Source of the DNA: Catajapyx aquilonaris
Taxonomy: Eukaryota
Assembly: GCA_000934665.2 (NCBI GenBank)
Contig: JYFJ02003691.1
Span: 1 to 38,860 of the forward strand
Direction of reading: 5' to 3'
DNA: 38,860 nucleotides
Shown here piece after piece: positions 513 through 38,860 of this stretch; the stretch's first letter is position 1; each line of letters opens with the position of its first letter. The notes under the pieces were generated by a model that saw only the letters and a program-made list of their open reading frames with translations, was not told where the DNA came from and searched no databases. The position numbers were made by a program, and so were the translations under genes.

Positions 513-1016
513 TCATCGTGGGAGAATGGCTGGTCTCGCTGTCGGCACCCGAAGTATCCCCTCAATTCGGGTGGGATGGCTCCTGCGAGGGATGGGGAAT
601 TCACAACCCCCCGCTGACTCTTCGACTCTTCCTTCTCCAACACCTTCTTCTTCTAATATCACTTCAACTTCGTCTACATCTTCTTCTTCAACATAGAGGT
701 GGTATTCCCCGACGTAAAAATCATCGTCGCCATCAACACCAGCAGTACCATCTTTTTCTTCTTTGACTACAGATGCCGCCAATGGACGGGTAATTTTCCC
801 GGTAAGGGCCTGCACCATAGACCGATTCCACTACCACCGCCGCTGGGCTTCATGCTCCTCAGCACAGTTCGCATGATCGTCCCAGCATTCCGTGGAAAAT
901 TGTGAGTAGAGATATCGGGCGTAGAGCTTTGTAGACCTTCCCCATTGGGGAGCTCGTGCCGACTTACACACACCGATTGCGAGCCCTGCTAGTAGGCTCG
1001 CGGTATTATCACACAT
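513..1016 (-). pseudogene. Orphan acidic protein gene (about 168 codons, MCDNT...DDFYVGEYHL...), possibly a Polinton accessory gene
   Basis: ORFs 831-1016 and 513-818 are in frame across one TAG (831-833), which is CAG in the paralog at 13623-13956. A GT-AG intron (1017-1090) lies directly before the ATG. Confidence 0.5.
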
Positions 1017-1473
1017 CTAGAGAAATGAGCAAGAGAGCTCATGGTTTTAACGAACACTCATGACAACTTCTATACACGCGGTTGTCTTACACACTAGTTG
1101 ATAATACAGCTTTGTGAAAAATCTTGACGCATTCATCCCCTTTTGAATTAGAGCAAAGAGGTACAATGTCCCACCATTGAATTAGAGCAAAGTGGTGATG
1201 CTGCTCAAGAATTAATTCAGCAGCTATAAAAAAAAACAATACCGATGATATATTATGTAATCACTTAGTGAAAAAAAAAATCCACGCGGATATCTTACGA
1301 ACTTTTCAATCCCTTTACGCATTCAAAATAATGATTCCCATTTCTCGCATCACACTTAATCAATGCTACTTAAAATTATCACCGAGGGTGTATGAAATCA
1401 CTTCACGAAAAACTACAGCAGTATACATCAAACTCAACACCGCCACTCTCCCACCTACATACACTATTTATCT

Positions 1474-1496
1474 TATCAGGAACAAGGTTCCTGACA
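1474..1496. promoter_or_regulatory. 23-bp repeated motif containing the inverted repeat TCAGGAAC-AAG-GTTCCTGA (copy 1)
   Basis: Identical to 2221-2243; partial copy at 25664-25675. The regulatory role is inferred. Confidence 0.4.
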
Positions 1497-1655
1497 GTAC
1501 CCCCTGTTTTCCAAAAAAAACAACAAAGCGTATGTTTTGTTTTAAACTACATCCTTCAAAATGTCACATTACAAACAAGAAATTTCAGTACAATAAGGTT
1601 CGAGTTCAGTCTGCATATTATGCACAGCCACCATCTTCATCCATATGACCCTCCC

Positions 1656-2128
1656 TCAGGCACCGGTCCCTATTGAAGCAAGTCTTCTTCTTCCGACGGC
1701 TCCCAAGTCCATTTGAAGAGTTGGGTCTTCTTCTTCATCCTGGAGAGATCTACCAGGGGTTGGCGGCACCAGAGGTTGGGCTATTTGTCGCCGCTGTCGG
1801 ACCACCTCTTCTTGTAAGCCAAAAGCCAGGTCCGCGATGAGGTGGAATGCTTGTGAATGGCCAACATTGTCTTCATCAGTCGGCAACCCCACGCGCTGCA
1901 ATGCTGCACGACAGGCATCTTCTTCCTGCGCACGTCGCTGCATAGACAGCTGTCCCCCCCCCCCCTCCAACGGAGGTAAGCAGACGTGGGGAGGAAATGG
2001 ACCATCGGTTCCTCTTCATCCACCAGGATGAAGTCGATGGGAGGTCCATCATCTTTCTCATGCGATGGCGGCAGGTACGCTATCCCGACAGCCGATGGTG
2101 CAGGACGAGACCAGCGCCGGATGTCCAT
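1656..2128 (-). pseudogene. Frameshifted orphan ORF downstream of pPolB
   Basis: ORFs 1781-2128 and 1656-1970 can be joined by a frameshift in the poly-C run near 1954-1965. It is co-oriented with pPolB. Confidence 0.3.
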
Positions 2129-2220
2129 ATCCCCACAATGACGTCAGGATTCAAAGGGGGAGGAGAGTTGGGGCACTGGGCACGTGCCGGAAGGGGTTGG
2201 AAATACATATTATGTCACAA

Positions 2221-2795: not shown

Positions 2796-5265
2796 CTAAA
2801 ACCGTAAGGATGCGAGTCGTGAACTTTTCTTTACTCTTTTATCGAAAACTATTCTGTATGTTTTAACCACCTCTTTCTCCACCACTGAATCGTCTGGAAG
2901 TCTCTCAATTTTTCTAGGCTCAACGACAGAGCATGAGCTTTCACCCTCGATTAACAGCATGGTTTTGAGAGTCTCCAAATTGACAATCTGCAATGCTCTA
3001 TAATTCAGTTTGATGCCTTTAACCTTTAGAGACACCGACTCCTCTCCCCGGTCATTTTTGACCACGTATCCGTAATTTTTCGGCCCGCCGGAGCAAAATT
3101 GGGTTATTGATGCTCCCGGTCCGTATTCCTCCAACTCGTTAGTCAGCTCACCTAGGTAATCTCCAGTTGGTAGGGGTGTGTCTCCAGGTCCGGTTACGTA
3201 AATTACGGAATCGGTGTCGCAGTACACCCGATCCTGCAAGTCTTCCAGATATTCGTAGAGTTTCAGGCGAGCTTGGCGGGCCGTTGTGAAAGCTCCGAGG
3301 ATAACATTGGTGGATGGGTGGGACTGTGGAAGATCATCTCTGGGTTTGGAAGTTATGGACAAGGTGTTCTCACCTACAGGTAAAACTGACGTCACCTCAC
3401 AACCAGGGTCTACAACTGTTCCGTTGTATGTACGGCCTTAGTGCGTGGTTTGGCAGGGTTCATCGCATATCGGCCCCAAAAGCTATTCAACATCAGTTTT
3501 GCCAGTGCCCTCAGACCCGAATTCTTGACGATCTTGTCGGGTTCGAGAGTCACTCCCTTGCGAGTCAGGTAGTCAGCCACATACTTCTCCTTGTCATCGG
3601 TTGTCTTGGACCAATCAGGCCATCCCGAGGCTTCCTGCTTCATCTTTTGGAATTTATCAATGTATGACCCAAACAGACCTGTGGTACCAGTTGCGGGGTC
3701 ATACCTTTCGGTATGCTAATTCCACACCTCATACATTTCCCTGACTTTGTACCCCAGCTCCACGGCCTTTCTCAATTCCATGGTAACCCAAGTACCCACC
3801 ATCTCGCGGCCCTTATCTTTGTGAGTGCAGGGGGTGGATTGATTGCACTCCTCTGCACACCTCCGACACAGTGTAAATATGAGCACCCACCTATCTTGCA
3901 ACCTAAAACTGGTTTGTCCAGGTTTGTGGGCGGAAGAACTCGAGACTTGACAATCCCCTCGTGGGAGTCGAGAGAAGCGAAGTCTCGGGTTATCACCACG
4001 AGGGTCCCGACAGGGTAAACACCGTACTTGCATACCCACGGGGAGAGCGACGTTACATCCGCATAGTGTACTTTCTCTCCATCCGCTGGATTATGAAACA
4101 ATTTGTAGGCCCTGTCCTTCCTCCCATAAGCGAGTCTCCCGGGTTGATTGGTTCCATATTGGGAGGGAGGTTTGAGAGAAAGGCACGTAGGATTGGATCG
4201 GTGTGAATTTGCGTACGGAATTGACACTCCCAGATTGTGTGTAACTCCACTTCCCAACCGGCCTGGAGAATTATCTGTTTCTTTGTTTAGTTTTTTGATA
4301 CCTAAAGTCCATCGTGGTAGTAGGATCGTCTTCCAATGCACTCATACGATTTGCGAAGCAAACGGGGCATCCATGAAAGTAGCATATGTAAAATTCGTAC
4401 AGATGCACGGTGTCGCCCTCCTGGCGGTATCCATCCACTTTGTGACGACCCATGGGTTGCTCTAGACCGTTCCCTTGAAAGGACATCGTTGTTCCTTGTT
4501 GATATACATTGGTCGTGATGGAGTGACCACCCTGCTTCAGTTGATGATCAATCCAATGGAGCCACTTCAGGGCAATGCCTGATTGCTTATCGTATCTGTA
4601 TCTTCCAGCAGGGATATTTGCTATGGACTTTTTTGGCATCATGTTACGTCTGTAGGTGAGGTGACATGCCTGAGGGAGGGTTATGGCTACTACAAGGGGA
4701 TCGACTCCATTTTCTGAGAGGAACATTGACCGAAACGTCAGACAAGCACCCTTCAGAATAGCTACATCCGCTGGTCTTTTAATACATACCCTCTTTCACC
4801 CAGTCTTGCTTTCTCACAGACATGCCATTCGAGGAACTTGGCTCTCTCGGCTTCAGACGTACCATCTGGATCTAACTCTGTTAAATTGGGGAGAGGTCCG
4901 ATGTAGTCCTGATTGTCAGAGCGGTTGGCAATATGGGGAAAGTACCCCTTCTCCTTGGGGAGTGCAGACAGCGGCATTGGTAGGAAACTGGCACTGTCCT
5001 TAAAGTGTATATCAGCATCGTTCATGTACATGACTTTTAACCCATTTGCAATAATATCAGGGTCTCGACCCTACTATTCAACCATTTGCTTTAGGATAAA
5101 TTGGCCATCGAAGCCTTTAAGGTTGTGAGCAATCACGATGATATCTTTGGGTTTACGGAACATGCGGATACGCTTGACAAAATCACCAATGGCTGTAGGA
5201 CGTTAAAAAATTTGCTGACGTACTCCACAAGTGCTGCAAAAATGTTCAGTGTCGCAATCGAAGCG
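2796..5265 (-). pseudogene. polB: Polinton/Maverick (adintovirus-like) protein-primed family B DNA polymerase, multiple frameshifts, 5'-truncated
   Basis: Motifs occur in the correct order: IVIAHNLKGFDGQF (Exo II, about 5095-5135), FKDSASFLPMPLSALPK, KGYFPH, VDGY..YEF..CYFHGCPVC (Vsr-like insert), GGRT, YADVTSLSPW, KLMLNSFWG, YCDTDSVIY, GPKNYGY, KVKGI. Confidence 0.93.
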
Positions 5266-5752: not shown

Positions 5753-5945
5753 CTATACAGCTGTCTCCACAGCCTTTACAATCTGCTGTTGGGTGTCTGG
5801 TGGGAGAGCTTCAAAAAGCTTCCCGCAGGCCAGCTGAGCTATCATTTCGGATGAAGCCGTCAGGAAGGATTTTACGAGGGCTTTTTTTAATCGAAACACA
5901 TAAGAGTCCCATGATTCGTGAGGTTGCAAAGTAAGCATAGACTTT
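5753..5945 (-). pseudogene. Possible retrotransposon gag fragment
   Basis: LTLQPHESWDSYVFRLKKALVKSF...LFEALPPDTQQQI resembles the Q..ES...Y..RL gag major-homology-like pattern. Confidence 0.35.
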
Positions 5946-5994
5946 GTTGGATCCGCCAGGTCCGATCGGAACTAATGTACTCCGGAGTCCGGAC

Positions 5995-7020
5995 CATGCA
6001 CGTTTTACACCATTTAGGCCAGTCTGAGGCCTCCTGCTTCATTTCAAGGAATGTGTTGATGTATGAGCTAAACAGATCCTGATTACCCGTGACAGTATCA
6101 TACCTGGCTATTTCATATCTCCGCACCTCGTCAGTCTCTGTAATTTTGTACCCCATTTCTTGTGTCTTGCTGAGCTCCAATGTCACCCACGTGCCACTTA
6201 TCTCCCTCTCGCTATCACTGTGAGTCCAGGGTGATAACTGTTCTACACTGTCGGCACACTTCCTGCATAAAGCGAATAGCAGCTTCCCTTCAATCTTGCT
6301 TCCTAACACAGGCTTGTCTAGAGTGGTTGGTGGTAACACTCGACATTTCACTAACCCTTCAGATGAATTTAGAGGGGGAAGACTCGGGTGATCACTTCTG
6401 GGTGACCTACCGGGAATACACCATACTTACAAACCCACGGATAAAGAGAAGTGACGTCGGCATAATCTACTCGCTCGCCTTCGACAGGTTTGAAAAAGAG
6501 TTTGTACGCCCCAGTCCTTCCTCCCATGAGGCTTTCCCTAGGATTTATTGGCTCCATGCAAGCAGGCAGGGTTGAAATTAATGCGCGGAGCTCCGGATTT
6601 ACTCTCATTTTTGCTCTAAACTTACACTCCCAACATTACGTTAAATTCTACATTCCCAAGCCGCTTAATCATGCATTCCCTCTGCATCGGACGTTGGTAC
6701 CTGACATCCATAGTGGAAAATTGGTCTTCCCCTAACGACACCCTGCGATTCGAGAAGCATGTAGGACTACCATGAAAATAGCAACCATAAAACTCGTAAA
6801 TGTGTGTGCGTCACCTTCCCGTAACCGTAAGTATCCATCAGCCTTGTATCTCAATATACGCTCTTCCGCCCCATTCCCTTGAAAGAACAGCTGTATTTTT
6901 TTCACCAGGGTTTTTTGCGTTTCTAATACACTCTGTCGTCCATTCTCCTTCTTAAGATTGTAATCAACTGCAGCAAAGTCAAAGAAATAGTGGATTACCA
7001 GTATCGTCCACTTCTTAGTC
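5995..7020 (-). pseudogene. polB: Second, diverged Polinton pPolB fragment (Vsr insert to palm region)
   Basis: MEPINPRESLMGGRTG, YADVTSLYPWVCKYGVFPVGHP, GTWVTLEL, YINTFLEMKQEASDWP. Paralogous to about 3600-4600 but with many substitutions. Confidence 0.88.
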
Positions 7021-7028
7021 CGGGCACG

Positions 7029-7567
7029 CATGGCACATTCGGAAAGGATTCTATCAAGGTCAACTCCTCACATGTAGGAATTGAACCGCTTGACAACATT
7101 TGGCCGAGGGATATAAATTGATGATGATGGTGTGCTTAAGATGGCATCACTGATGCACTGTATAACAGCAAATGGATTAGTGAGCATGAAACATCCACCT
7201 CTCTAGGATCAAAAAAGACCNAAAAAAAATAAAAAGAACAAAAAAACACACATTTGTTCAGTTAACGTTGGGGGTGGGGTGGCCTTGCCTGCCCTCCCCT
7301 ACAACGTCACAGGTGCTTGGCGCAGTATAGCCATTGCTGCTGTTGCGCCATTAAACCATTAATCAATCAATCAATCATGGCACATTCGGAAAGGATTCTA
7401 TCAAGGTCAACTCCTCACATGTAGGAATTGAACCGCTTGACAACATTTGGCCGAGGGATATAAATTGATGATGATGGTGTGCTTAAGATGGCATCACTGA
7501 TGCACTGTATAACAGCAAATGGATTAGTGAGCATGAAACATCCACCTCTCTAGGATCAAAAAAGACC
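7029..7567 (+). repeat. 192-bp exact direct repeat (7029-7220 and 7376-7567) flanking an assembly N
   Basis: The sequences are identical from catggcacattcgg to aaaagacc; there is a single N at 7221. Confidence 0.9.
7222..7375 (+). mobile_element. 3' end of a SINE/LINE-like element with an (AATC)n tail
   Basis: Ends ...gcgccattaaaccattaatcaatcaatcaat, a microsatellite tail typical of non-LTR retroelements. Confidence 0.5.
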
Positions 7568-8480: not shown

Positions 8481-8519
8481 CTGGGCCATCTCCACATGTT
8501 CTCTATGAGATAGAACTGA

Positions 8520-9280: not shown

Positions 9281-10029
9281 AAATGATGCAGTATTTTTAA
9301 TAAGCCATTTCCGTTATGTACGATCCTTATTACTAAGCAGAACGCATCCAATATTATCGTAAGGTTTTTTTAAAACAATTATTTTGAATGCTTGAGCACA
9401 ATACAGCATAAGCATGACTCACCTCCCTCTTTACTCCAGCTACCTCCAGCGCCACTGACAGTTATGCAACTCATAATTCCGTGAATCCGATCAACATAAG
9501 AGCCACCCTCCAAGACCAATTATCACCTCTCCGTTCCAGGAGGAAGGGCTCTTTGAGTCACCGGCCCCCATCGGGAGTTGTCCACTTCTGAGAGGTCCAC
9601 TGTTGAGGTCTCCCCCTTCGGCGAGGTCCACTATAAAATCCAGGTCTGAAGGCTGGCTGGAGTGCAGGGTGTCCACTTCCCCATTTTCTATGGGAGGAGA
9701 GGACTGCTGGCTCCCCCGCTAGTCATGTTGCCCTTGGTTCTGAAGAGACGAGCCACAAATCAGAATGGAAACTTTGCAAAATTACTCTCAACTTACGCTC
9801 TGAATCCCACCGAATCCTTCCCGGTTCCCGGTCGCAGCCGTGGATTTGCCCCATCGCGAAAGATAATTCGGGACACAGAGAGGTACATAACCTTGCATAA
9901 ACTTACATTCCCCCATATCAGTTCTATGGGATTGAGATCACAGTGGTACGGAGGCAATCGAATTACTTGGTGCCCGCGTATTTTTGCCAGTTCGTCGATG
10001 TCACTTCTTCACTCGCGACTTGCGTTGCG

Positions 10030-10420
10030 TTGCACATGACCCACCGCGAACTTCCTTGGGCAAGTTGCACTGACAATATGTTCATACTCCTGTGGAAGGG
10101 TCGCGCTCTCAATATGTCTCAACCGTTTCTCAATGAGACCAAAGGAACGGTCGCAGGGCAGGAAACTAAGGCCAGGTTCAGGAAATCGGTGTAGTATCTT
10201 GTGAAATCGTCCGAGTCTCACGCATGTGTAGAGAAACTGCGCCATGGCTTGGTTTTTATTTTGTGCACAGCAGTTATCAGAAAACAGATAAATCTCTTGA
10301 CTTTGTCCCAAAATATTGCCAACGTAGTGGTGTAGAAAGCTTATGTAATATGACTTCGTTTGACCCTTTCCTGCCCAAACTTTCATCGTAGTACATGTAA
10401 AAATGTGTCTTTCCTGAGCT
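10030..10420 (-). pseudogene. Sola1-like DDD transposase core fragment
   Basis: FYMYYDESLGRKGSNEV (frameshifted), LFSDNCCAQNKN, HRFPEPGLSFLPCDRSFGLIEK. Confidence 0.75.
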
Positions 10421-11560
10421 TGCTGCATGGATAGCGAAGTTATATTCCCAGAGGGGGTGAGTAGGGAAGTCACGTGTTCACTACGCAAAGTGACGTCAGA
10501 TGCTGATGACGAACACAAAGGCTAATATGCTCTCCACCCTCGATCTCACCCACTCTGGTATGCTGACTCCAGTGGGAGCAGGGTCAACTCTGAGGGAGAT
10601 CTCACGGGCATCGGTCATTAGAACCCTCATGTAAGCCGTCTTCTCATGCAGAAGTGACAGCCCCATTAATTCTGCTGAAGCTGAGGAATCGGGTGACATG
10701 GTTGGATGTGGAGAGGACGGAGATTTAGGGTGTGGAGAATCAGTGGCCCCCATCCCCCCCTTAGCCATGGAGGCACCCCCCGAAGGAAAAGTTCATATCC
10801 AGTGAAGATTTTCATTTTTATTTAAAGGGAGGTGACTGGTAACTGTTTATTATTACCAAATCTACGGAACAAGAGAAGAAAACAATGAGTAACCTGACGG
10901 CGAATGGCATGCTGCTAACGTGAATAATTAACCGGCGGTCATTATTACGGGACGACAGACGCACTGGCTCACGGTCGGCTGTCTCTCGGTGTCAAGCTGG
11001 GTGTCGATGTCGCCCTAGCTGCTAGGAGTCAGGAGCCTTCACCATTCCATCCATTCTCGCCTGCTTCCATCTTCCCGTTTTCTGAGCCGAGGTGCCGACC
11101 AACATGGCCGCCGTCTCCCCCATCTGTCCCCCACCCTGCTTCTTGAAAGTCACGTGACGCCTTCTCCTTAACACTATAACCTCCTTGGGAATAACCTGTA
11201 CAAAATGGGGGAATATTCACTATGCCTACACTTGCACCATCACGTCCTTATTCTGGGATTCACCTTTATCCTCGATGGCGTTAGGGCACTTGATTGACAC
11301 AATAAGAGGGGTACACTATTCAGCCAGTTCCCTCGGTTATCCACTCTCACAAACGTCGGTCTGGTGTGGTGAGTACTCGATGATCGTATGCATTTGTCTA
11401 AGAAGGGAGGTATTAATTCTACTAGTCTACCAGTACATAATTACAGCTTGCATAACATTAACTTACATCATGGGGTAGAGTGAGATTTAGATTTTCAATA
11501 TCTATCCTCTCAGTAGTGATGAAGGCCTTTGTTCTAGAGTTGAGAACTTTTGTCAACATA

Positions 11561-12470
11561 CCTTGTGATGAGAAACGCTTGATGTTGCCCAAATTTTTCA
11601 CCGAGTGACCAAGATGGTTGCCCAAAATGTGCATGTATGGAGTTACACTCAGTTTGTCATACTGCTCCTGAAGCTCCCGCAGTTGCAAATAATTTTCCAC
11701 CCATGATCGTCCAGCTGCTTCAACCTCATTTGGTTGTCCGGATGTAACTGTTTCCAGCAATGCATCCAATTCCTGAGGGGAGACAACAGCATTCATAACT
11801 TCAGTAGAAGTCAATGGCAACTTGCCATTATTGTAGTGGTGGACTCGCCAATCATTTTCAACCAAAAAGGGAATGTGTAACCAGACAAGACTGACTAATG
11901 CCTTGTTAGCATCTAATTATGTTTCCCAAACGTACAATCTGATTTCACATTTGAATTTTCATGTCTACTCTGAACCTTGAAAGTTACTTACGTGCCAAAG
12001 TTGACACACGTCCTCCCTGGCCAAATTCATCGAGTACTAGACTACCACAAGAGGAATATGTCTATATTACCTGAGAGTGTTGACAGTGCGATCTTATCCC
12101 TTGTGTTTGGGAAAATCTTGACTCGGACACCACATTTCTGCATGGCAACACCTAGCTGTTGGAGGGCAGTTCTTGGCAGTCCTTGCCAATTTTGTGTTCT
12201 TCTTCTTTGGTCCACTTTTTCTCAGTCTACCAATTCGTCCCAACCGCCTGTCGACAACTCTCATTTGTAGGTGTAGGGTGTCAATGATGACGTCGTCAGG
12301 ATTGAGATGGAAAATTGGAAGATGTTGAACTCCATTCCTGTCCGATGCAGTCCAAGGCGCGGAGCTCTGCCTCACTCTCTCCACATGTCATCCACAGTTT
12401 GTCGCTGGTCACGGTGCAGTAGACGCGTGTTTAGAATTGGCGGCCTTCAATCCCATCACTACTAACTCAG
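11561..12470 (-). pseudogene. Intron-containing RAG1/Transib/Chapaev-like transposase, C-terminal half (family member A)
   Basis: MGLKAANSKH..YC, IIDTLHLQMRVVD and VTPYMHILGNHL...KRFSSQG, followed by a GTATGT donor. These parallel RAG1 CTLC, DALH and TNYFHK..H..EG.E. Confidence 0.65.
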
Positions 12471-12677
12471 ACCCTTCCACCCCTTCTCATTGCACTTCAC
12501 AAATTAATGATATGATCAAAAATGCATTAGAATTTATTCTTCAATGGAAGACCTATAATATATTCATGACAATTATTTAAGGCAAAGAATACTAGGACCT
12601 ACATAATTATGTAAATGCAACAATAAATTTCAGCTAATTTTTTAAAGCTTGCCTGGATGGTTTTGGAGCTATCTCTC

Positions 12678-13455
12678 CTGCTTGTGCCTGTGACACAATG
12701 AAATGCAGCTTTGTCACCTTCAATGTGCAGCTTCACGTTCGTGCCACAGTCCTTCATTCCCTGCAGGAGCCTGTCGACGTTAGTAGTTGTAGGCTTGAGC
12801 ATGCCCAGCCTCTTCAGCTTGGCATCCATTTCTTGGCATTCTAGAAGGATATTTTCCAGGAGCTTGTCTACAATCCTCATCATTAAATGGAGGGTGTCCA
12901 CCATGACATCTGATGGTTCTACTGCTAGCCACGGCACGAGACGGACGCCGTTACCAGCAGTAGGGAGGTCCCTCAGCATCGTTTGGATGGTTCTCTTCTC
13001 TGCTGTTCTCTCTGTCCTCCAGAGGTCGTCTTTGTGGACTGAGCAGTAGAGGCACGGGTGATTTGCCGTGGCGTTCCTGAGCCCCAGTGCCATCTGCGAA
13101 AAACTTCATGCGCTTGCCAAGTACTTTGACGGGAACAGACTTCTGGGCCGTGCTGAAAATCTGTCTGTTGCAGGCTAACCTGCTGATCTCCTCGCCGAGA
13201 GAGGAGAGAGCCGCATTCCAGGCGGAGTAGCTTTCGCTCTCCTCGAAGATAATGATAGTCCTGTGGGTTGAGACCGACTCCACGTTTTGGCCTGATCCTT
13301 AAGGCGGAATCCATCCCCCTCGATTTTCACAGTAATATTCAAAGCTTCCAGTGGGACACCCCGCTCGCGGCTCACATCCCGAATGGCCTCTCTGACATCC
13401 TCTTCGAAAGAGTGGGTGCGCACGGCGGTGATTGTTCCCTCTATTCTGGTCACCT
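12678..13455 (-). pseudogene. Intron-containing RAG1/Transib/Chapaev-like transposase, N-terminal catalytic part (family member B)
   Basis: ITVKIEGDGF (first catalytic D), FEESESY, MKFF..MALGLRNATANHPCLYC, MVDTLHLMMRIVDKLL; two frameshifts. Confidence 0.65.
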
Positions 13456-21040: not shown

Positions 21041-21061
21041 CCCCGTGACTGTCATTTAGTA

Positions 21062-26341: not shown

Positions 26342-26963
26342 GGCTGTGGTTCCTCTTCCCGCTGGTTATTGGGGACGTTCCTTCGTTCTTCCCCGTCCGC
26401 TGATGTCTCCGGCCGTTGATTCGCCTGTCGTGGGTCTAGGTTACCCCCGAGACAACGGTGTGAGTTCCGGGAGTGTCCTGGAGGGTTCGCTGAGCCCAGC
26501 CCGATGACGGTGGAGTGACCAAGGGATGAGGCCACTGGTGACACGCTCTGAAGGTCCAAACGGCTCCAAAAATCGTCTTCTTCTGGAGGGGAGGCCTCCT
26601 CGGTTGTTGGGAAGACCACAGCGGAAGGGGCCCACGCCTGGACGATGATTCGGCTACCTTCCGGATAATAGCGCCAGTCGGTGATCCTGTGCGCATTGAT
26701 ACGCACCACTTGGAGTCCCGGACCTGATGGGTCCGGCGATATCATCACTGAGCCGTGGGTGGCTATGTATTCTCGAAGACGGAGTTGCATCCACGGTTGT
26801 GGGGCGGTAATCGGTGCTGGGAGAGTGTAAGTTCGACCGGGTATCTTGGTTGAGAATAATCTTCCAGGAAAGGAGGGAGAGGTGTGGAGGAAGTCATGAT
26901 GTATGATCGAAGGAGGACAGAGGACTGACTGGCCAAATCCCGGCGTTCAAACGGGAGGGGCAT
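26342..26963 (-). pseudogene. Orphan GC-rich ORF with one frameshift
   Basis: ORFs 26763-26963 and 26293-26790 overlap; protein-like composition but no family recognised. Confidence 0.3.
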
Positions 26964-27560
26964 TCCTAAAGTGTGGCCACTGCAAAACGTCAGTCATTAA
27001 CCTCCCCTGACTTGTATCAATGATCATGGGAAACGACCCTCTATCGTTCCTCCAACTGTCTTCCTCTGCTGACTCGATACCTCAGAGGATGCACGGAACA
27101 TATTGCGCTACTTCCCGTGGACACCTGATCCCCTAAAGGCTTAGATGCAGCCTGGGAAAGTGTTCCCTGGTCGTTGACACTTTACTTCCGTCTGTGTGTA
27201 TGCATGCTGGCGAGTAAACTGAATGGGGTATAACCCAAACGCATATCCAATATCAGGCTTACTTCTTATGTATTTTCCTTATACTGTATATAAATCCTCT
27301 ATTATGACCACACTTGCAAAAAGGACTTGAGGAACTACTGTGTAACTGTATATGTGTGTGTGGGTGGTGTGGGTGTGTTCACCGCCCATGAAGGGCAAAG
27401 TCATATACCGTATGACGTTCGAGAGCGCGATTAAAAGTTACCTAACATGTTGCAAAATGAACTACGCAATGCTCTAAAATTTGACGCTACTCTCACTCAA
27501 ACTAAGGCAATACTGCTGAAATCTTTTACTAAGGATCGTGCTTACTCAGCAATGGTGACA

Positions 27561-27883
27561 GACGTGTGGCCCGCCTACAGGTTTTGGGCGTATGCCAACA
27601 CGGCCGGTCCCTCAACCGGCCGTGTGACGTTGCTGTGGATATGAATCTTCTGGCGATAGGAAGAAAAGGCGTTTTTGTGATTTTTGGTTTTATTGGCTAA
27701 AAAATAGTTCCCCACACATGATTTACCGGGTTCCGACCGGTTTCGCTCGTAGCGAGCTCATCAGGGAGAATGTTTGGATGTGTGGGCATTGGATCATACA
27801 ACTAAATTACATACTACTAGTACAGGCGGGCGGCCCACCACACTCGTGCGGCAACGGGCCGAGCCGCCGGGCAGAGCGCCTAC
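27561..27883 (+). repeat. About 300-bp direct repeat shared with 35121-35412
   Basis: gacgtgtggcccgcctac...gcagagcgcctac present at both sites. Confidence 0.9.
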
Positions 27884-29189
27884 GACCAGTGGTATCGTCA
27901 CGCGGGTTTGGGAACAATGGGACACACTGATCACCTAAGGGTTTGGGGTAGGTTTACAAGAGACGGCGACTGACGACAGTCAAACAGTACGACCACGAGG
28001 GCTTCCTGCATATGGGGGGATTCCTGAAAGGTACTCCCCCCATAGAGGAAAAGTGAACATAACATGGGTAGGGGCGACAAAATTGGGGACGGGAGATTGC
28101 GACAAGTTGGCCGGCGTTGATGTCCGCAGGGGAGATTGTTGATTTCTGCACCCACTTGAGGGTGGGTGATCGGCTTCGTCCGGCTCCTCGGTCCTCAATG
28201 TGGTGGTTCGTCGCTTGGAGATGTTCGCCCCTACCCATGTTGCGTGGATGCAGTCCGGACTAGGAGTGTGGCGAGGTGTGCCCACCCCTTGTCACAAACA
28301 GTGGAAGCGTGAAATTAAATAGATTCAAAGAAGCAGGAAAGACAAGTCAACTTAAATACATTTATTAGAATAATTTTTTCCATACGTACAGAATCGAGTG
28401 GCAGACTAGGGCAAAACCCCAACCAGACTGCTTGTGTGTGCCGCCTCGAGTTTCATAATTTGCCCAACGGTCAGTCCCACCCTGTGGTAGTGTCTGCTAT
28501 TAATAGTGCAAATTCGTTTCACTGCCCAACTCAACCAGCATGCCAGAACCCAGCATGTTAATATGGTACTTTTTGTGCACCTTATTCACTTCCAATGTTT
28601 CAATTTCATCCCGTATGTACTTGCTGAAGACATCCTCCAAATGTTAACATGGGATGAGCCAAGGTTTTTAAAACCACAAGCCGACTTGTGTGTCCATATT
28701 TATGCAGCTACAAGTTCACAATATTCTCTACTAGAAACAAGCGGCATCAACAGGTGAGCATATCATCATACAATCAAGTAATGAAAAATCGAGTAATGCG
28801 TATTGAAAAATGGATCTGAGAACAATCTATGAAAAATGGCAGTGCAAATTACCTCGACGTCTTTCCTCTGCCATTTTATGGGAACAGGAAAAAAATTATT
28901 TTCCCCTGTGCCTGAATATAAGTCATTTCTTTTGGGTACTCTGAATCTGAAACAAGTCGGAAAGATTACAATAACTCTGGACTCAATACGCATTGGTACA
29001 CCCTGCACATTGTAGGTGAATGCAGTGGTACTGTAATGCTCAAATGGATGTATTTTGTTATTTTTTGGATTCCTTATTGGTGTTGAACTGATTCTCAAGC
29101 CACTTCCACCTGGAATGTATTTTTGGCAGACCAAACTGCAACATCCCTCTACAAACATTTTGGCCAAGTTCCTTGGATTTGAAATGGAT

Positions 29190-29400
29190 CCAGGGCGAAC
29201 ACGTTTGCGAAAAGGTCCTTAGGACTTGAGTAGATTTATTGCTTTCGGGACACTAGACTGCAAACATTTGAAGTGCTTGAAATTACAGGTATTTGTACTG
29301 CTACAACATTTATGACAGGATTTCTACCACCCCAACTACCAAGTTTCTTTTTTTTTTTGGCTGTGCCGCAGTCTCCCAAGGCTTCCATGGTTGTAGCTGC
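29190..29400 (-). pseudogene. Possible decayed THAP domain
   Basis: SSTSNVCSL...RKRVRPGSI resembles the VCSxHF...RLRPGAVP motif. Confidence 0.25.
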
Positions 29401-29868
29401 TACTGTAGAACCATTTCCACAGGTGGGCGTCTTGGACAGGCCTCTGGGATCTGGAAGGACCATTAAAATTTGTTCAAATGTCTGACGCCCTAAACCCAGA
29501 CCTTCAAACACTACCAGAGTAGCATGTAAAACAATATCATGTGAATTTTGTAATCTAAAATGGTTGGTTTGGTTTAGGTTAAATTGCATTGGCACCATAC
29601 TGACCCATAAGCAGCCAAACAAAGAAATCGCTCCTTCACCTTGTCCTTGGTGGGCACAGAGTATCTTCCATCGGCGGAGTCCCGCGTCAACCTTTCTTCC
29701 AGATCATCCAACCTGAAAAGAACATAGGCTACATATAGTATCATTCTATCATAAAGTAAATAATAAAATAATAATAAATAGTATACCAAAACATGGAACC
29801 TAAAAAGCGTTCTGGCAGTGCGAATAGAAAGCTCAAAAGAGACAGAGACAAAACTGCCACTGCAAATC

Positions 29869-30223
29869 TCAGCAATTGGCTCCGCCCAAACAAAGAAGAA
29901 AATGAGGTCCTTGAAGAGGTGACCTTGTTGATACCTCTGACGACAGACGCCTGGGCACCATGAGCTGCCTTCCCCTCTTTGTGGCACTCTTCTCCTCATA
30001 TAGGGCATCCAGTTTTTTAAAGATGTTCCTTGCTTTTGTCCTCAGCCAGGGCAGTTGTTTCTTGAGGAAGATTTTTTTTATTACTACTCCCGCCTTCTGC
30101 TTCCTCATCCCCACTTTCCTCGCTTGAAATAAATTCCCTTTTGAGGATCTGCTTCGCCTTATCTTTGTCTTCTGCTGCCAGGTGGTGAAAACCAGTTTGC
30201 CTTCTTTCCAACTTATGAAACAC
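29869..30223 (-). pseudogene. C14orf93-like / CACTA-associated accessory protein exon
   Basis: ILKREFISSEESGDEE...KQLPWLRTKARNIFKKLD (SSEES..LPW..LD pattern). 30015-30368 is duplicated at 37116-37467. Confidence 0.5.
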
Positions 30224-30381
30224 TATTATATGTAAATTAGAGAGGCATGCTATAGAGCTTATACCTTCGGGGGGGAAGGGGGGGGCTGCTATGGCTGGTT
30301 TAGCATGAAGTAATAAATGTAAAGAACCTTACATGCAATATTCAATCTGTGGAATATTTAGGTAGCGGAAAATAAAATCAC

Positions 30382-30544
30382 CTCCGAGGCTTCGTGACTG
30401 CCTCCAAGAACTGGTGGAGTAGGCTGGACAATGGCCACTCCTTCCGTAATACAGCCTCGGAGCCACTACGGCCATCTCCGAGCGCCTTCTTTTCCCGGAC
30501 ATATTTATCCCTCAGGCTTTTCCATCGCGCCTTGGCCTCGGTAA
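30382..30544 (-). pseudogene. MADF/Myb-SANT exon (PIF/Harbinger accessory protein-like)
   Basis: Manual translation TEAKARWKSLRDKYVREKK...SGS...WP...FL, bounded by a ttacag acceptor and a gtgatt donor. Confidence 0.7.
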
Positions 30545-30674
30545 CTGTAATTAAAACATTTCATTAAGACCTTATCAGGGTAATGTCCATATCTGATTCC
30601 CAAAACTGCTTGACGTGAATTACCAAGGCACATCCATATAGCCTACCATGTGAAAGAAAAAACTGGGATTGGGA

Positions 30675-30975
30675 TTACTTATGAATGGAATATGGAGGAA
30701 TCAGTTGAAAGATTTTCTGGCTTATGTACGCCTCCTCTGCTTTTGACACTTCTTCTGTTTCATGCAACCATTGGAGTCGTATTGGCCTGCAGAACCTTTT
30801 GGACGAAGGTCGGGGATTCTTCCATATAATGCTATCATCATTAGTAGCCACTAATCGGAGGGGTACAAGTGAGGTGACAAACACACTTCCATCATTTACC
30901 CCTTCTTCAGTGGACTTGCCAGTTTTGTGATCTTCTCCATCTGTCCCAACTTTGTGTCTTCTATAGCCAGATAGC
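30675..30975 (-). pseudogene. Canonical Transib transposase fragment
   Basis: SVFVTSLVPLRL...IIWKNPRPSSKRFCRPIRLQWLHET, a hallmark Transib/RAG1 segment. Confidence 0.88.
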
Positions 30976-32304: not shown

Positions 32305-33931
32305 CTAGAAATAATAGGTTCTCTAAGGCTTGGACTCAGATAGTCTACATCCGACATTTATTGCTCTCAAGCCATCATGAATCCCTTAGACCTCCGCTCT
32401 ACTGTCCCCATTTGAAGCACTCCCTTCCTCTTTTCTACTATGTGCGCCAGATCTTCTTTGATGGCCATTATCTGCTGGAGTGCAGCGAGAGACTTGCCCG
32501 TGGCGACATACCCTGGTCTGGTAGTCTTGACGTCCTCCATCATCCCCTCTGTGAAATGTACATTCCGTTTCCCAGAGAAAACAGGGGCAACAGCAATCTG
32601 TCCTTCCCCTCCTGAGAGAAGATTGGTTTGGCAGGCTGAAGTCAATTTGGCATATAGGGGAGAGTAAAAGTTACAGCAGTGGTGCTTTCCCCCATCTTCT
32701 TCATTTTGTCACCAATGTCCCTTCCAGTCTACCAGTTGCCGGTAGTCGTGATTTCTGACAAGATGCTCAAATCTTCTTTAAACGTTCCAAATATGCCGTG
32801 AAAGACTAGTTGAGCTGCAATGGCAGTATCCATCGATCCATTTAATGTCCAACTGGTTTCGCAGCAGGTTTGGTACGCAGCAAAACACCCAGTTCCAAAG
32901 TAATTGAACGCTTTGATTCCTTCAGTAGGAGCCCTCGGGGTGACACATGTGAACTCTCCTTCTTCGAACTTGGTATACGCTTTAATGTAATCCACTGTCA
33001 ACAGTGCGTGACTGAGCATGGTCAGAGGAAAGAAAGCCCTTTGAGCTTGCCTGGTGGTTGTGATCAGCGCAATGTCAGCCAGAAGCCCCATTACCATCCT
33101 GATTTGGTAGGCGGGTCTTCCTCGAATTGCCATCAGAACCTCGGTGATGCTGGGAATATGGCTCAAAGCTCTGGTGACCGCGGATGTCCACTTTTGGGAG
33201 AAGGGGTCTGTCGGATTAGATCTTGCATGTAGGAGTACAGAAGTCAAAGGCCTAGAGACTGAGCCATGCTGCTTCTTCGCTCTGGTGGGAAACTGATTCC
33301 TTCCAGCAGAATGTGGTGTTTGGGCAACAGTCCGTAATCAGCGACTTTGACCACTGTTTGTCCTTTTCCCTGAGTCCTTCCAATGGGCATCTCTGAATTG
33401 CCAATTCTAAATTCTTTGATCCTGAGAGAAAATCCTGAAGCAAAGTTTAACAGGGTGCTTGCTGTTCCATACCAGTGATTGCGGTCTCCAGCTGCTGGTA
33501 CAGAAAAAGGTTAGCCCAAACATTGCAGCAGGGGTTTTCATGACTTTTTGGAGAGTGACCAAGGTGGTGGTGTAGTTCTTTCCTCCGTGATGGATTGTTG
33601 GGGCTTGAGTCCTCACTTTGTTTATCAATTTCCCCTTCTGGCTGACCTCCTGCCTCAAGAGAGTGAATATGGTGTTCATGATGCTGGTGGCCTGAGTTGA
33701 AATGTTGAGGTTCATGACAGCATTCGAGACTTTGAAAGCCACCAGGAATCTCAGGAATGTGACCAAAATGAACCCCAGGACTTTCTCCTTCTGATCTTGA
33801 TTTAGGTCAATCCGTGGTCTCTTGGATTATGATATCTCTTGGGTTGGATCGTCCGCACTCACTACTCTCTTTTTATGCGTCTGGGCTTCCTCTGCTGTCT
33901 CCATCTCTTCGGGGTTTGGTTCGGTAGGCAT
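32305..33931 (-). pseudogene. NP: Endogenous orthomyxovirus (quaranjavirus-like) nucleoprotein, apparently full length, with stops and frameshifts
   Basis: ATG at 33931; QLVFHGIFGTFKEDLSILSEIT..W, SACQTNLLSGG..QIAVAPVFSGKR, GTV. These parallel influenza NP QLVW..EDL and QISVQPTFS. About 1.6 kb, no introns. Confidence 0.8.
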
Positions 33932-35593: not shown

Positions 35594-36559
35594 TGTTGGT
35601 GGAGGAAGATCGTGCCGAAGCCCATGCAGCGTTCTTAACCAGGCGTCTTAAACAGGCTCAAAGATTGAAAAAGATTTGCGTGTGGCATATTTGACATTTG
35701 AGCCTCGGTTCATCACACTGTCCCGTGGCCTTCAGGATCAACTGTCCCATTAAAAAGCAGTGGCAGAGATTTATTATACGCGCTACGGATATACTGTATG
35801 AGTGTATGTTTTCTGGAAAGGGAGCGGTTGTAGAACGGCCAGGGGAAATGGGGGAGATGGAGGAGAGGTTGGAAACCATTCCACTTGGTCTTTGGTACAG
35901 TGCTTGAAAAAAACTGCCATGTACCCCCACAAGCAGCACACATGCAGAGCAGTGGGAAGTGTGCACGAGCTTCTGAAAAGAGAACCAAGAAAAAGAACTA
36001 AGCACAAGAGTCACCAAAGGCATTTTCCTAACACATGTTTATGCACCTTGCATGAAGTCAACATGGTCTACTAGCATGACTTATTTTATTACAAATTGGC
36101 ATCATTATTAAAGCTCTTGAATCAGGCTGATTTGAATTTTTAAATGCAAGTTAGTGCAATTTTGATGCCAATTGAAATGATTACATTTGTGAAGCGGGTA
36201 ATATAGTTCAGATGTCAGATGGATACCAGATGCCAAGGGATGCATGCATGCATCAGAGACACATGTTCACCTTTTTTTGGGCTGCTCAGCACTAGTTCAG
36301 AGCAACCAAATAGATCTTATGCCCAACAATGAAAGGTATGGATCAACTGGCTTATGGGAAATAATAGCACACCTTCATCGACGCCGCCTGTATCCTCCCC
36401 CTCTGCTGTTGTTGCCATGATGGTTTGGGGGCCTCTTTCTGCGGCACATCTGGCATTTTTCTCCACCCCAAGCACATCTGATAGAAGAAATAATCAGTTT
36501 AAGAGTACGGCATAAACCCAAGAAAGAATGTAAAATCAGCATGCAGAAATTATAATCAT

Positions 36560-37115
36560 ACCCCAGGTTTCCAAGAAAGGTCATGCAGGTTCCCTTCTCA
36601 TGTCCCCTGGTGTGACAATCGTCACACCAGTCGACTTGGTAGGCAGGGACACCCAGGACTTCCTGTGTGACTCTAGGTAGAGCAAAATCTGGGCTCAGCA
36701 CATTTTTTAGCACATTTCTCAGCAAGCTGGCCCAGATTTTGCTCCCCTTCTTGGAAAAGTGAACACCATCGCATGCCAGCATCATCTTCAGCTTCCGCGC
36801 AATGGGCTGTAGAGCAAAATTAAAATTCCATGTAATTGCATCCTCATGGAAATTTTATAATAAAAAACTCACGCTGATCTTAAGGAGGAACACTCGTGTG
36901 TCCTGGCACACCTTCCTCAGCCGCTGATTCCAAAAGCGCCGCAATCCCTCCCTCATGCAGGACTTGCCGTGTGACCTTCTCCACCCTCGGTGGTACCTCA
37001 CACACGACAAGCCTGCATGAGGGCATTGCCTTTCGAAGTATCATGATGAAGCCCTTCAACTTCTTCAATTCTTTTCTTGCCATCTCCAGGGGATTGGCTT
37101 TGGTGGCGATGTTAG
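36560..37115 (-). pseudogene. SGNH/GDSL hydrolase C-terminal half plus CCHC zinc knuckle, spliced
   Basis: LVVCEVPPR, DGVHFSKKG (block V), CDDCHTRGHEKGTC (CX2CX4HX4C); GTGAGT...TACAG intron at 36807-36872. Confidence 0.6.
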
Positions 37116-37467
37116 TTTTAAAGATGTTCCTTGCTTTTGTCCTCAGCCAGGGCAGTTGTTTCTTGAGGAAGATTTTTTTATTACTACTCCCGCCTTCTTC
37201 TGCTTCCTCATCCCCACTTTCCTCGCTTGAAATAAATTCCCTTTTGAGGATCTGCTTCGCCTTATCTTTGTCTTCTGCTGCCAGGTGGTGAAAACCAGTT
37301 TGCCTTCGTTCCAACTTCTGAAACACTATTATATGTAAATTAGAGAGGCATGCTATAGAGCCTATACCTTCGGGGGGGAAAACCCTGCTATGGCTGGTTT
37401 AGCATGAAGTAATAAATGTAAAGAAGCTTACATGCAATAGTCAATCTGTGGAATATTTAGGTAGCGG
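37116..37467 (-). repeat. Direct copy of 30015-30368
   Basis: Near-identical sequence including the flanking intron-like DNA. Confidence 0.9.
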
Positions 37468-37859
37468 CATTTGCTATTTAGCGTGAAAAAATGGTAACAC
37501 TTTATCTTAGTGTACAGTAGGCCCTACATGTATGGATATATCCATAAATTAGCTATAATTGCAGTATTTTAAATTTAATTAATTTTTTCCTTAATTAATA
37601 AGCCCCAAGGAAAAAAAACAAATTAATTTTATTGCATTACATGTCATTCACACTCTAGATAGAGCACGCACAGGCTGTTGTGACTGAAAACCTTGCCCTT
37701 GTGGAGCGCAATACAGTAATTCACACTAATAACACAGCGCAACAAAAAAAACTTTCGGCGTATTTACTCGGAAACCACTACGCACATCAAGTTAGTGGGA
37801 CCCAAAGTAGCTGGGAAACGCCCGGGATTTCTCTCCCAAAATGTGCAGTGGGTCAGGGT

Positions 37860-38860
37860 GACCTGTCAGTGTGCTGAGGAAGAATACGGTACGCTTATCT
37901 CTCCATCTCCCAGCCAACATGCTTCCACATTTCATGAAATCCACTGTTCCTTTCTTGATGTTTTTACTTTTCAGGTCAACAGGGAACCCGCTAACAATTT
38001 GCCGCACTGTCCCCCTTTCTGCCAGATCGCGGAAGAGCCGTGGTGATGAGTAGAAGTTGTCGACAAAGAGTTGGTGTCCTTTGTTTACGTACTCTTCCAT
38101 CAACTCCATGACGACCCTGTATGCCAAATCATGCTCTGGTTTTCCGGAAGGATCCTTCCCGGTGTAGACCTGGAACAAAATATTGCCCAGAGAACAAGAG
38201 GCAAGTCGTGAAAATAGCAATTATAGTTACCTGAAACTTGAGCACGTAACCTGTGACAGCATCTGCCAGCACCCAAATCTTGATCCCAAACTTCTTGGGC
38301 TTTGCTGGCATATACTGCCTAATTTGCATGCGGCTCTTAGTCCCGACCATTTGTTCATCGAGACTTAGTTGCTATGCGTCCCGGTGAGAACATCAGGGGT
38401 AGCACCTTGGAGATGGCATCAATGAGTGGCCTGACTTTGTAAAGTCTGTCGGGCTCGGGGTTTTGCGTCAGATGGTTGTCATTAACATGGAGCACAGACA
38501 GAATGTCCGTAAATCGGTTGCGGCTCATGACATTTCGATACTAGTCACAGCGGGTCATTGGGTCTGTACTCCAATAGTCCGACACCTGTGACTTTCCTTC
38601 AATTACCATTGCCAGACAGAGCCCCAGGAATCCCTGAAATTCCGGATCTGTAACGGGCTCCCAGTTCTTCATATTTTTTTCTTTTCTTCCCATCCAGACC
38701 TTCTTGCGTTGCATACAAGTTTGTCTGCTCAACCAGCTGAGTCATTACTTTGTCATCGAAGAACTTATGAAAAAGTTCGAGTGGTGTCATCTCTCCATAG
38801 TTACTGTTTTTGATGGCCCTATTGCCACCAGTAAATGGAACCCCTCAAAAACGCACTCGT
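37860..38860 (-). pseudogene. piggyBac (PGBD4-like) transposase with an intron, frameshifted
   Basis: TPLELF..FF, MSRNRF, LSLDEQMV, QYMPAKPKKFGIKIW, LFVDNFYSSP, WRDKR; 61-nt GT-AG intron at 38170-38230 joining LKFQ|VYTGK. Confidence 0.92.

Follow-up and report, generated by a model that had tools for sequence, protein, structure and literature searches.

Cluster 38 of Aedes aegypti is described as a flamenco-like unidirectional piRNA cluster, whose layout yields one long antisense transcript and phased, 1U-biased piRNAs of 24-29 nt (PMC7161354). In Drosophila, the strand bias of flam-like clusters is reported to be driven exclusively by env-bearing Gypsy elements (PMC10643416), and FlaHMM predicts such loci from genome sequence by repeat strand bias alone (PMC11400887). 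Core piRNA clusters of mosquitoes are enriched for virus relics in antisense orientation and are fed by read-through from upstream genes (bioRxiv 10.1101/2022.08.22.504762).

We analysed a 39-kb stretch of DNA (38.9 kb, hereafter the window) from an animal genome, probably that of an arthropod. It is a mosaic of disrupted genes, one from an RNA virus and the others from transposons. Like Aedes cluster 38, the window is repeat-rich and carries transposon fragments together with a non-retroviral RNA-virus relic on one coding strand and no recognisable functional gene. It differs from cluster 38 in that it holds one virus relic (an orthomyxo-like nucleoprotein) instead of many, in that DNA elements (Polinton polymerase, Helitron, piggyBac, DUF7869) make up most of its verified transposon relics and in that it lies wholly inside the region, with cluster ends and promoter outside. 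Flam-like loci span 227-1085 kb (PMC10643416; PMC11400887), compared to 38.9 kb visible here. Furthermore, the bias in the window extends over DNA transposons, whereas only one Baculo_F-type env and no reverse transcriptase or integrase match were detected. Because of this single env relic and the lack of both enzymes, the locus departs from the flamenco template, and we rejected its assignment as a strict Drosophila flamenco or flam-like cluster, for which an enrichment and strand bias of env-bearing LTR elements of the Gypsy family would be expected. With the mosquito core clusters, the candidate locus shares a virus relic antisense to the precursor, which here is a proposed one. The read-through model described for mosquitoes would also allow for a plus-strand precursor without a dedicated promoter; any upstream gene would lie outside the window.

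Coding relics and their strand

Both strands were treated equally in a Pfam scan of 555 stop-to-stop ORFs of at least 40 aa, comprising 205 ORFs of at least 70 aa (98 plus, 107 minus) and 350 ORFs of 40-69 aa. All ten ORFs above the curated Pfam cut-off are located on the minus strand, and none of the roughly 300 plus-strand ORFs reached it. The three relics confirmed by database searches (the nucleoprotein, the Helitron fragment and the second DUF7869-family piece) are encoded on the minus strand as well. The one-strand bias of the coding relics is real. The verified set consists of the following relics:

2799..5202, minus strand: protein-primed B-family DNA polymerase relic 1 (Polinton/Maverick type), at least six ORF pieces in three frames
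5890..7067, minus strand: protein-primed polymerase relic 2, internal fragment (DNA_pol_B_2 at 6372-6635, 27.3 bits)
9814..10521, minus strand: DUF7869-family DDE-type transposase, internal fragment of about 140-190 aa (Pfam DUF7869, 36.1 bits)
15066..16556, minus strand: 5' fragment of a Helitron protein, intact open frame of 497 aa (protein database search)
20379..21051, minus strand: Baculovirus-F-type (errantivirus-like) envelope relic (Pfam Baculo_F)
30381..30560, minus strand: MADF DNA-binding domain relic (MADF_DNA_bdg, 23.0 bits, cut-off 22, E 1e-4)
30678..30956, minus strand: second relic of the DUF7869 protein family, part C-terminal to the DUF7869 domain (tblastn)
32388..33862, minus strand: endogenous orthomyxo-like nucleoprotein relic of an insect orthomyxo-related virus (protein database search)
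37795..38844, minus strand: piggyBac transposase relic (DDE_Tnp_1_7 on five ORFs in three frames)

Polymerase relic 1 matches DNA_pol_B_2 at 3413-3715 (34.1 bits, cut-off 25.8; Pfam) and, below the threshold, at 5077-5202 (19.4 bits, profile positions 2-30). Its C-terminal ORF (2799-3437) contains the sequence YCDTDS, which we take to be polymerase motif C. Relics 1 and 2 align in direct orientation (3610-4175 vs 6009-6575, 66.7% nucleotide identity; blastn), and all blastp pairs between their ORFs are direct, too. DNA_pol_B_2 was the only Polinton gene family that Pfam detected near 2799-7067, with no match to rve, capsid, ATPase or others, and the blastn self-comparison of the window revealed no inverted repeats except for a local palindrome at 260-394. 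Without genes for integrase, capsid, ATPase and protease and without terminal inverted repeats, the region represents polymerase fragments and not a whole Polinton/Maverick.

The Pfam match of the first DUF7869 relic falls on the ORF at 10012-10521, while tblastn covers 9814-10450. A phmmer search returned 1375 library proteins (E <= 1e-3), the best 150 of which all align only to query residues ~490-660, and the family HMM was matched only at profile positions 297-439 of 571. Weak DDE_3 and IS630 matches at 9796-10008 point to an IS630/Tc1-like C-terminal motif. To the second piece, at 30678-30956, residues 211-307 of protein P0019 align with 39% identity (E 2e-11, tblastn); the DUF7869 domain of P0019 is located at residues 6-160. 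The Helitron fragment shows 51% identity (E 2.7e-80) to insect proteins with the domain PF14214 (Helitron_like_N). Homologue residues ~1-301 map to 16058-15177, and later parts of the homologues were found nowhere in the window (both tblastn). The ORF aligns only upstream of the homologues' domain, which sits at 462-570 of P0005. In the absence of the Rep (Helitron_like_N) and PIF1-type helicase parts, it was not classified as a whole Helitron.

The five piggyBac ORFs score 59.8, 48.1, 28.0, 38.9 and 27.4 bits against DDE_Tnp_1_7 and cover profile positions 1-281 of 349; a read-through scan gave 73.7, 72.2 and 41.1 bits in the three frames. This relic may extend beyond the end of the window. 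The read-through scan also recovered the MADF relic. The envelope relic matches Baculo_F at 20379-20657 (24.5 bits, cut-off 24.1) and weakly at 20575-21051 (E 0.037).

The best match of the nucleoprotein relic is the nucleoprotein of Hymenopteran orthomyxo-related virus OKIAV171 (E 1.2e-33, 98% query coverage). It is nearly full length, as residues 32-511 of 543 of P0001 map to 33862-32397 (tblastn), but its coding sequence contains three in-frame stops and is frameshifted at least once; a Flu_NP match at 32370-32708 is weak (E 0.034). This non-retroviral relic shares its coding strand with the neighbouring transposon relics, all of which are partial.

Two plus-strand ORFs had sub-threshold matches (E <= 0.01) to unrelated families, HTH_upst_double_PIN (32280-32612) and DUF7146 (20062-20244). 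In the window, neither a plus-strand protein family above the Pfam cut-off (555 ORFs) nor a tRNA or Rfam family was detected. This is consistent with the claim of the sequence-only reading that the window contains no host gene, as no plus-strand gene is recognisable, and falls short of proving it. That reading had been made without tools, and many of its family names were not reproduced, which raises the question of whether the bias could have arisen because one strand only had been translated. The identical scans of both strands, with 0 of ~300 plus-strand ORFs above the Pfam cut-off, and the shorter and less protein-like plus-strand ORFs refute such an artefact, to which we assign next to no probability.

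Four further minus-strand candidates were named by eye from motifs:

~18035-18058, minus strand: putative YqaJ motif
22281..22772, minus strand: ORF, putative pogo/Tc5-type HTH region
23877..24396, minus strand: two ORFs, putative C-terminal part of a hAT transposase
36378..36854, minus strand: ORF with a DGVHFS motif, putative end of an SGNH esterase

The pogo/Tc5-type candidate had no Pfam match at E <= 1 and none in the PDB, and its AF2 model reached a pLDDT of 38.7. For the hAT candidate, Pfam gave no match and the combined database query was empty. The SGNH candidate matched neither Pfam nor NCBIfam, and the PDB contained nothing better than E 0.6.

Independent insertions and local repeats

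The tool-verified relics correspond to seven to nine independent insertions from at least six unrelated families and cover ~9.4 kb (~24%) of the window; 76% is without annotation. The count may be as low as seven (P = 0.016), because the polymerase relics adjoin and the two DUF7869-family pieces could derive from one element. For seven to nine relics, the probability that all share one strand is 2 x 0.5^7 to 2 x 0.5^9, which corresponds to 0.016 to 0.004. This is significant and far from the value of 2 x 0.5^20 given in the sequence-only reading, which overstated the case by assuming 20 independent fragments. More than 20 relics, all on the minus strand, had been proposed; the common strand holds for the seven to nine that tools verified (10/10 by Pfam, 3/3 by database) and does not carry over to the larger number. 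The hAT, pogo, YqaJ, SGNH and SAMD3-like relics gained no tool confirmation, while a second piggyBac, a second hAT, Sola, RAG1-like, Transib, gag and LTR relics were neither located nor confirmed. Within the verified set, DNA transposons do dominate, as had been stated; at E <= 0.01, Pfam detected no family of reverse transcriptase, integrase or gag in any of the 555 ORFs. As only ~24% of the window is tool-annotated, non-coding or very decayed plus-strand elements could be hidden in the remainder.

Further repeats were detected within the window:

408..1105, 13539-14037 and 25922-26435: three-copy direct repeat (blastn, 90% and 72%)
11243..13105, minus strand: family without a name, with direct copies at 11243-12387 and 21055-21877 (~90%, blastn)
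22836..30511 and 34040-37523: three collinear direct segments in common (98%, 88.5% and 95%)

The blastp pairs of the three-copy repeat are direct as well. Database and profile searches yielded no name for the family at 11243-13105, which includes diverged paralogous pieces at 12602-13105 and 30964-31095; blastp aligned 12097-12387 with the former at 34% over 74 aa (E 1e-8) and with the latter at 63% over 30 aa. The block at 22836-30511, for which blastn at word size 7 revealed no further segments in common with 34040-37523, probably represents one local duplication that was disrupted later, judging from the order of its segments. All repeats within the window are direct (blastn, blastp). They are weak extra evidence and do not add independent insertions, because they resemble low-copy local duplications; several of the items that had been listed twice as separate insertions may have the same origin, as may all in-window repeats. 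Summed DNA-contig depth at 90% likeness, which is a poor measure, is near the local baseline (~30-130) across most of 10-30 kb and suggests that few close copies exist elsewhere as piRNA targets, which counts against a piRNA source.

These repeats bear on the possibility of a neutral transposon graveyard, situated within repeat-rich chromatin, in which the orientation of a few independent insertions is due to chance and was inflated by local direct duplications. Direct orientation throughout, the apparent confinement of several repeats to the region by contig depth, the collinearity of three pairs, as after a single duplication, the lower bound of seven insertions and the unannotated 76% of the window would all be in line with this. 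Duplication, however, accounts for repeated items and not for the common strand of different families: the relics stem from at least six families that are too unrelated to have been copied from one another, and the plus strand yielded none among the 555 ORFs. Considering also the asymmetry of ORF lengths described below, we regard a neutral graveyard as improbable.

Homology-free strand asymmetry

ORF length differs between the strands independently of homology. ORFs of at least 150 aa number 21 on the minus and 6 on the plus strand, and when the window is divided into 39 bins of 1 kb, the minus strand holds the longest ORF in 30 of them (p = 0.001). Among the 24 bins that contain no verified relic, the minus strand prevails 17 to 7 (p = 0.064, hand tally). 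Minus-strand ORFs also have the more protein-like composition, with 9.7% aspartate plus glutamate (D+E) versus 5.0% in plus-strand ORFs. For the polyadenylation signal AATAAA, we counted 16 occurrences on the plus strand, where base composition predicts 12, and 32 on the minus strand, where it predicts 18; this agrees weakly with a plus-strand transcript that reads through.

Such a transcript could also be an ordinary one. The window may be a giant intron or an untranslated part of a plus-strand host gene or lncRNA without a role in the piRNA pathway, in which purifying selection purges sense insertions, as their polyadenylation or splice signals harm the host transcript, and antisense relics accumulate. 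Transposons in introns are biased to antisense, and the window resembles introns of long genes in its one-strand excess of relics and in that the transcribed strand, which here is the proposed one, is depleted of polyadenylation signals. Relative to the plus strand, every verified relic is antisense, AATAAA is found there half as often as on the minus strand, and the window contains no exon-like Pfam match, as would be expected inside an intron. The antisense bias of introns is, however, usually moderate (roughly 60-70%) and strongest for LTR and LINE elements, and is far from complete for a set that comprises cut-and-paste transposons, a Helitron, a Polinton polymerase and a virus relic. In the window, all verified relics follow it, DNA transposons and the virus relic included; at 65% antisense, seven of seven to nine of nine would have a probability of 0.02-0.05. 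Flamenco itself is a spliced Pol II transcript. We consider the intron explanation unlikely.

A possible uni-strand piRNA source locus

Our preferred reading, which we hold with about even confidence on the basis of the relic arrangement, is that the window lies within a uni-strand (unidirectional) piRNA source locus like Aedes cluster 38. The window contains a dense array of unrelated fragmentary transposons (nine relics verified over 38.9 kb, from at least six families) with a strong orientation bias (10/10 Pfam, 3/3 database, 30/39 bins). As these are unrelated families and all relics but the near full-length nucleoprotein are truncated pieces, the array matches descriptions of piRNA clusters. 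At the level of sequence, the window thus shows what the uni-strand cluster claimed in the sequence-only reading requires: a dense one-strand mosaic of truncated, unrelated mobile-element relics together with an RNA-virus relic, and no recognisable gene on the other strand.

In such a locus, a long plus-strand Pol II transcript would start left of the window, from a promoter or by read-through from a gene. This precursor would be antisense to every relic and would be cut into primary piRNAs directed against Polinton-type, DUF7869-type, Helitron and piggyBac transposons, an env-bearing retroelement and an orthomyxo-like virus. Antisense insertions or captured fragments would yield silencing piRNAs and be retained, whereas sense insertions would yield useless piRNAs, or stop the precursor by their own termination or splice signals, and be lost. 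Only one coding strand would survive such an orientation filter. That the locus is transcribed, and from which strand, is an inference, as are the processing into piRNAs and any silencing that they would exert.

It may further be speculated, more tentatively, that a flamenco-type one-strand 'memory' locus exists here outside the Diptera models, whose filter also acts on cut-and-paste DNA transposons, Helitrons, Polinton-type elements and an orthomyxo-like virus. If so, unidirectional clusters could serve as antisense archives of a general kind, directed at DNA elements as well as at segmented negative-strand RNA viruses. If small RNAs do not confirm the piRNA reading, the window would be an ordinary strand-biased repeat region. 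If they do, they would add a unidirectional piRNA cluster in a species without one described here. Its content would depart from the textbook case, as DNA transposons, a Helitron, Polinton polymerases and an orthomyxo-like nucleoprotein take the place of Gypsy retroviruses. The locus would then help to test whether the antisense filter works generally in such clusters or is retrovirus-specific, and whether segmented negative-strand RNA viruses leave relics in the archive as they do in mosquitoes.

Protein families on the two strands

The window (38,860 bp, ~46% G+C) has a plus strand that is C- and T-rich across most 2-kb windows, a single N at 7221 and a sole tandem repeat (17212-17262, 18-bp unit x2.8; tandem-repeat scan), and tRNA and Rfam scans of it returned nothing. 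All stop-to-stop frames of both strands, 205 of at least 70 aa (98 plus, 107 minus) and 350 of 40-69 aa, were compared with Pfam. The curated cut-off was exceeded by ten frames, every one of them on the minus strand; no plus-strand frame reached it in the same scan.

Table. Matches above the Pfam curated cut-off
3413-3715 and 6372-6635, minus strand, DNA_pol_B_2
10012-10521, minus strand, DUF7869
20379-20657, minus strand, Baculo_F (baculovirus-F-type env relic)
30381-30560, minus strand, MADF
Five frames within 37795-38844, minus strand, piggyBac-type DDE_Tnp_1_7

Plus-strand Pfam rows at E <= 0.01 were confined to the unrelated families HTH_upst_double_PIN and DUF7146, both below threshold, and the minus strand carried comparable sub-threshold noise (AmoA, AATase, Radical_SAM, DUF885 and Cytochrom_C_asm). 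Reverse transcriptase, integrase, gag, hAT, Tc5, YqaJ, RAG1 and GDSL families had no Pfam match on either strand. A relaxed Pfam search (E <= 1) covered 87 ORFs of at least 100 aa, namely 33 plus and 54 of 57 minus ORFs, with the Pfam-positive minus ORFs 3413-3715, 10012-10521 and 37795-38220 set aside, and gained only weak Flu_NP and Baculo_F matches. One Pfam scan of a set of three read-throughs, with stops as X, added little beyond the ORF scan, and NCBIfam gave just two rows for 93 ORFs, both far below threshold. Since both strands were scanned equally, an artefact of the sequence-only reading is excluded. In database searches, the closest homologues of the relics were insect proteins and insect viruses. 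Together with the env relic, these homologues point to a probable arthropod host.

Four further minus-strand pieces were picked out by eye. Judged by motifs typical of these families, 23877-24396 may be a hAT C-terminus, 22281-22772 a pogo/Tc5 HTH, 18035-18058 the start of a YqaJ nuclease and 36378-36854 the end of an SGNH esterase. Searches of Pfam (E <= 1), NCBIfam and PDB, a combined database query and structure modelling lent support to none of them. A PDB sequence search with 22281-22772, 36378-36854 and 12602-13105 found no credible match, and the hAT-like and pogo-like pieces, submitted as one combined read-through database query, gave 0 matches. AlphaFold2 models made without alignment for two ORFs, including 22281-22772, were unusable (pLDDT 38.7 and 39.1).

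Individual relics and their independent number

The longest frame in the window (15066-16556, minus, 497 aa) resembles insect proteins carrying Helitron_like_N (E 2.7e-80). It aligns only to the first ~300 residues of its homologues (tblastn), and the Helitron relic that had been proposed for the minus strand is therefore present as a 5' fragment. The frame is uninterrupted, whereas neighbouring relics are full of stops; either it is of much more recent origin than the other relics, or something else has preserved its reading frame. Two short repeats of very high copy number lie in this region, at 14670-14953 and 16300-16472, where the summed DNA-contig depth reaches thousands compared to a baseline of ~30-130 and contigs end at the borders. 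The second of them sits within the Helitron frame.

In the representative protein library, 1375 proteins are related to the DUF7869 frame. The best 150 of these align solely to this frame within the 1103-aa read-through of 8608-11916, and 11461-11916 and 8608-8955 were for this reason not assigned to the DUF7869 protein. A hidden Markov model built from 36 full-length proteins of the family matched only at profile positions 297-439 of 571 and found no further part of the family on either strand of the window; judged by this profile, the relic is a small internal fragment. P0019, a homologous protein that carries DUF7869, also aligns, by another of its regions, to minus-strand positions 30678-30956 (tblastn, E 2e-11), which marks this stretch, by homology, as a second relic of the family. 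The DUF7869-family fragment continues into an LPPY..LNPIE motif at 9796-10008, where DDE_3 and IS630 match weakly, and the alignment of P0017, another member of the family, spans this region. Together, the motif, the weak matches and the P0017 alignment suggest that DUF7869 proteins are IS630/Tc1-like DDE transposases.

A nucleoprotein relic of viral origin had also been proposed and proved to be real and nearly full length, yet broken. The frame 33826-32640, with stops as X, resembles nucleoproteins of insect orthomyxo-related viruses (E 1.2e-33, 28% identity, 98% query coverage), and residues 32-511 of a 543-aa viral nucleoprotein align by tblastn to 33862-32397 on the minus strand. The relic (32388-33862) is interrupted by three in-frame stops and shifts frame near 32654-32666. 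Among its closest matches is P0002, a protein from the genome of the butterfly Colias eurytheme; similar nucleoprotein relics therefore exist in other insects.

The sequence-only reading had counted more than 20 relics, all on the minus strand, and put the chance of this at 2 x 0.5^20. The strand was borne out for every verified relic by the two-strand scan and the database searches; the number shrank to between seven and nine. Tools verified nine relics (two polymerase, two DUF7869-family, and one each of Helitron, env, MADF, nucleoprotein and piggyBac), all on the minus strand. Together they span ~9.4 kb, about 24% of the window's length. The polymerase fragments adjoin each other and share 67% nucleotide identity (self-blastn), and the DUF7869-family pair might stem from a single element, so that a cautious independent count is seven. 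The probability that all lie on one strand is then 0.004 (2 x 0.5^9) to 0.016 (2 x 0.5^7), which is significant and replaces the earlier figure. The Pfam matches agree with the earlier naming of both polymerase fragments, env and MADF. Of two proposed piggyBac copies, one was recovered (37795-38844), and no tool found the other, nor a second hAT, Sola, RAG1-like, Transib, gag or LTR relic. The one-strand pattern in the window is real, with about three quarters of the window unannotated.

Strand asymmetry and repeats within the window

The asymmetry also appears in measures that do not use homology. Frames of at least 150 aa number 21 on the minus and 6 on the plus strand (p = 0.006), an excess that stands although stop codons are slightly commoner on the minus strand (4.52% vs 4.20%), and, of 39 1-kb bins, 30 have their longest frame on the minus strand (p = 0.001). 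The bias probably extends, weakly, into unannotated sequence, since the longest frame is minus in 17 of the 24 bins without a verified relic (hand tally, p = 0.064). In frames of at least 100 aa, D+E and K make up 9.7% and 5.4% on the minus strand and 5.0% and 3.0% on the plus strand. S, L, P and C are more frequent in the plus frames of this size, as is typical of antisense translations, and these plus frames look nonsense-like by eye. At 174 aa, the longest frame of the plus strand (31393-31914) belongs to 31400-32300, a low-complexity stretch that is purine-rich on the minus strand. Long frames are open here on either strand and are unlikely to code for protein.

Neither cut-and-paste transposons nor Helitrons nor virus-derived DNA should favour one orientation on insertion. 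Some strand-dependent filter is therefore needed to explain why unrelated fragments all lie on one strand, and transcription is the obvious candidate. As a rival reading, the window could lie in an intron, or another non-coding portion, of a gene on the plus strand, in which sense insertions were selected against. This would account for the strand of the relics and for a twofold plus-strand deficit of AATAAA (16 plus vs 32 minus), but the orientation bias of intronic transposons is partial and chiefly concerns retroelements, and we consider this origin unlikely. Counts of A-runs and T-runs (15 vs 12) showed no strand excess.

Repeats within the window are likewise mostly direct. Self-blastn gave 13 direct and 2 inverted off-diagonal matches, both of the latter belonging to a local palindrome at 260-394, and 82 of 83 protein-level ORF pairs (blastp) were direct, the single inverted pair being marginal (E 8e-4 among 798 queries). 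The palindrome is imperfect, lies in an AT-rich stretch (250-400) where the palindromic word GTATTTAAATAC recurs several times, and sits immediately left of the first repeat copy. A 192-bp sequence is present at 7029-7220, ending there at the N at 7221, and again with 100% identity at 7376-7567; this pair is probably an artefact of gap closing or assembly rather than biology. Three further pairs are collinear between 22.8-30.5 kb and 34.0-37.5 kb and look as they would after a single duplication. The repeats seem confined to the region of the window, because the summed DNA-contig depth over them, by the tool's own caveat a poor measure, is only ~2-4x the local baseline. Local duplication tends to yield direct copies, with or without an insertion bias. 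Given the likely artefact, the collinearity and the local confinement, we discounted the direct repeats as independent support.

Few independent events combined with direct duplications could also have left a neutral graveyard, which we regard as distinctly improbable. Over most relics the same poor measure of depth is near baseline, which hints at few close copies elsewhere for piRNAs to act on; such scarcity would be in keeping with either an old archive or a graveyard that has no function.

Relation to known piRNA clusters

A known system that shares the one-strand mosaic layout of the window is the unidirectional piRNA cluster. Judged from this layout, such a cluster is a plausible and the best available reading, and we put the chances that the window is one at about even; transcription, its direction and piRNA production are here inferred. 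A search of sequencing runs for the window listed four DNA runs, all of one study, and a fifth run of unspecified kind with hardly any of its words; no RNA run was among those listed. A mosquito study describes core clusters in which virus relics are enriched in antisense and which are fed by read-through from upstream genes (bioRxiv 10.1101/2022.08.22.504762). In Drosophila, one study uses the repeat content per strand to predict flam-like clusters from sequence (PMC11400887), and another attributes the strand bias of flam-like clusters exclusively to Gypsy elements (PMC10643416).

The window shares its layout with flam-like clusters and differs in content. The sequence-only reading had called it flamenco-like, which agrees with the general unidirectional layout; the strict definition of flamenco does not fit, because the relics of the window are mostly DNA elements, env is represented by a single relic, and reverse transcriptase and integrase had no match. 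If the piRNA-cluster reading is true, the window would be a further unidirectional piRNA cluster, one unusually rich in DNA transposons.
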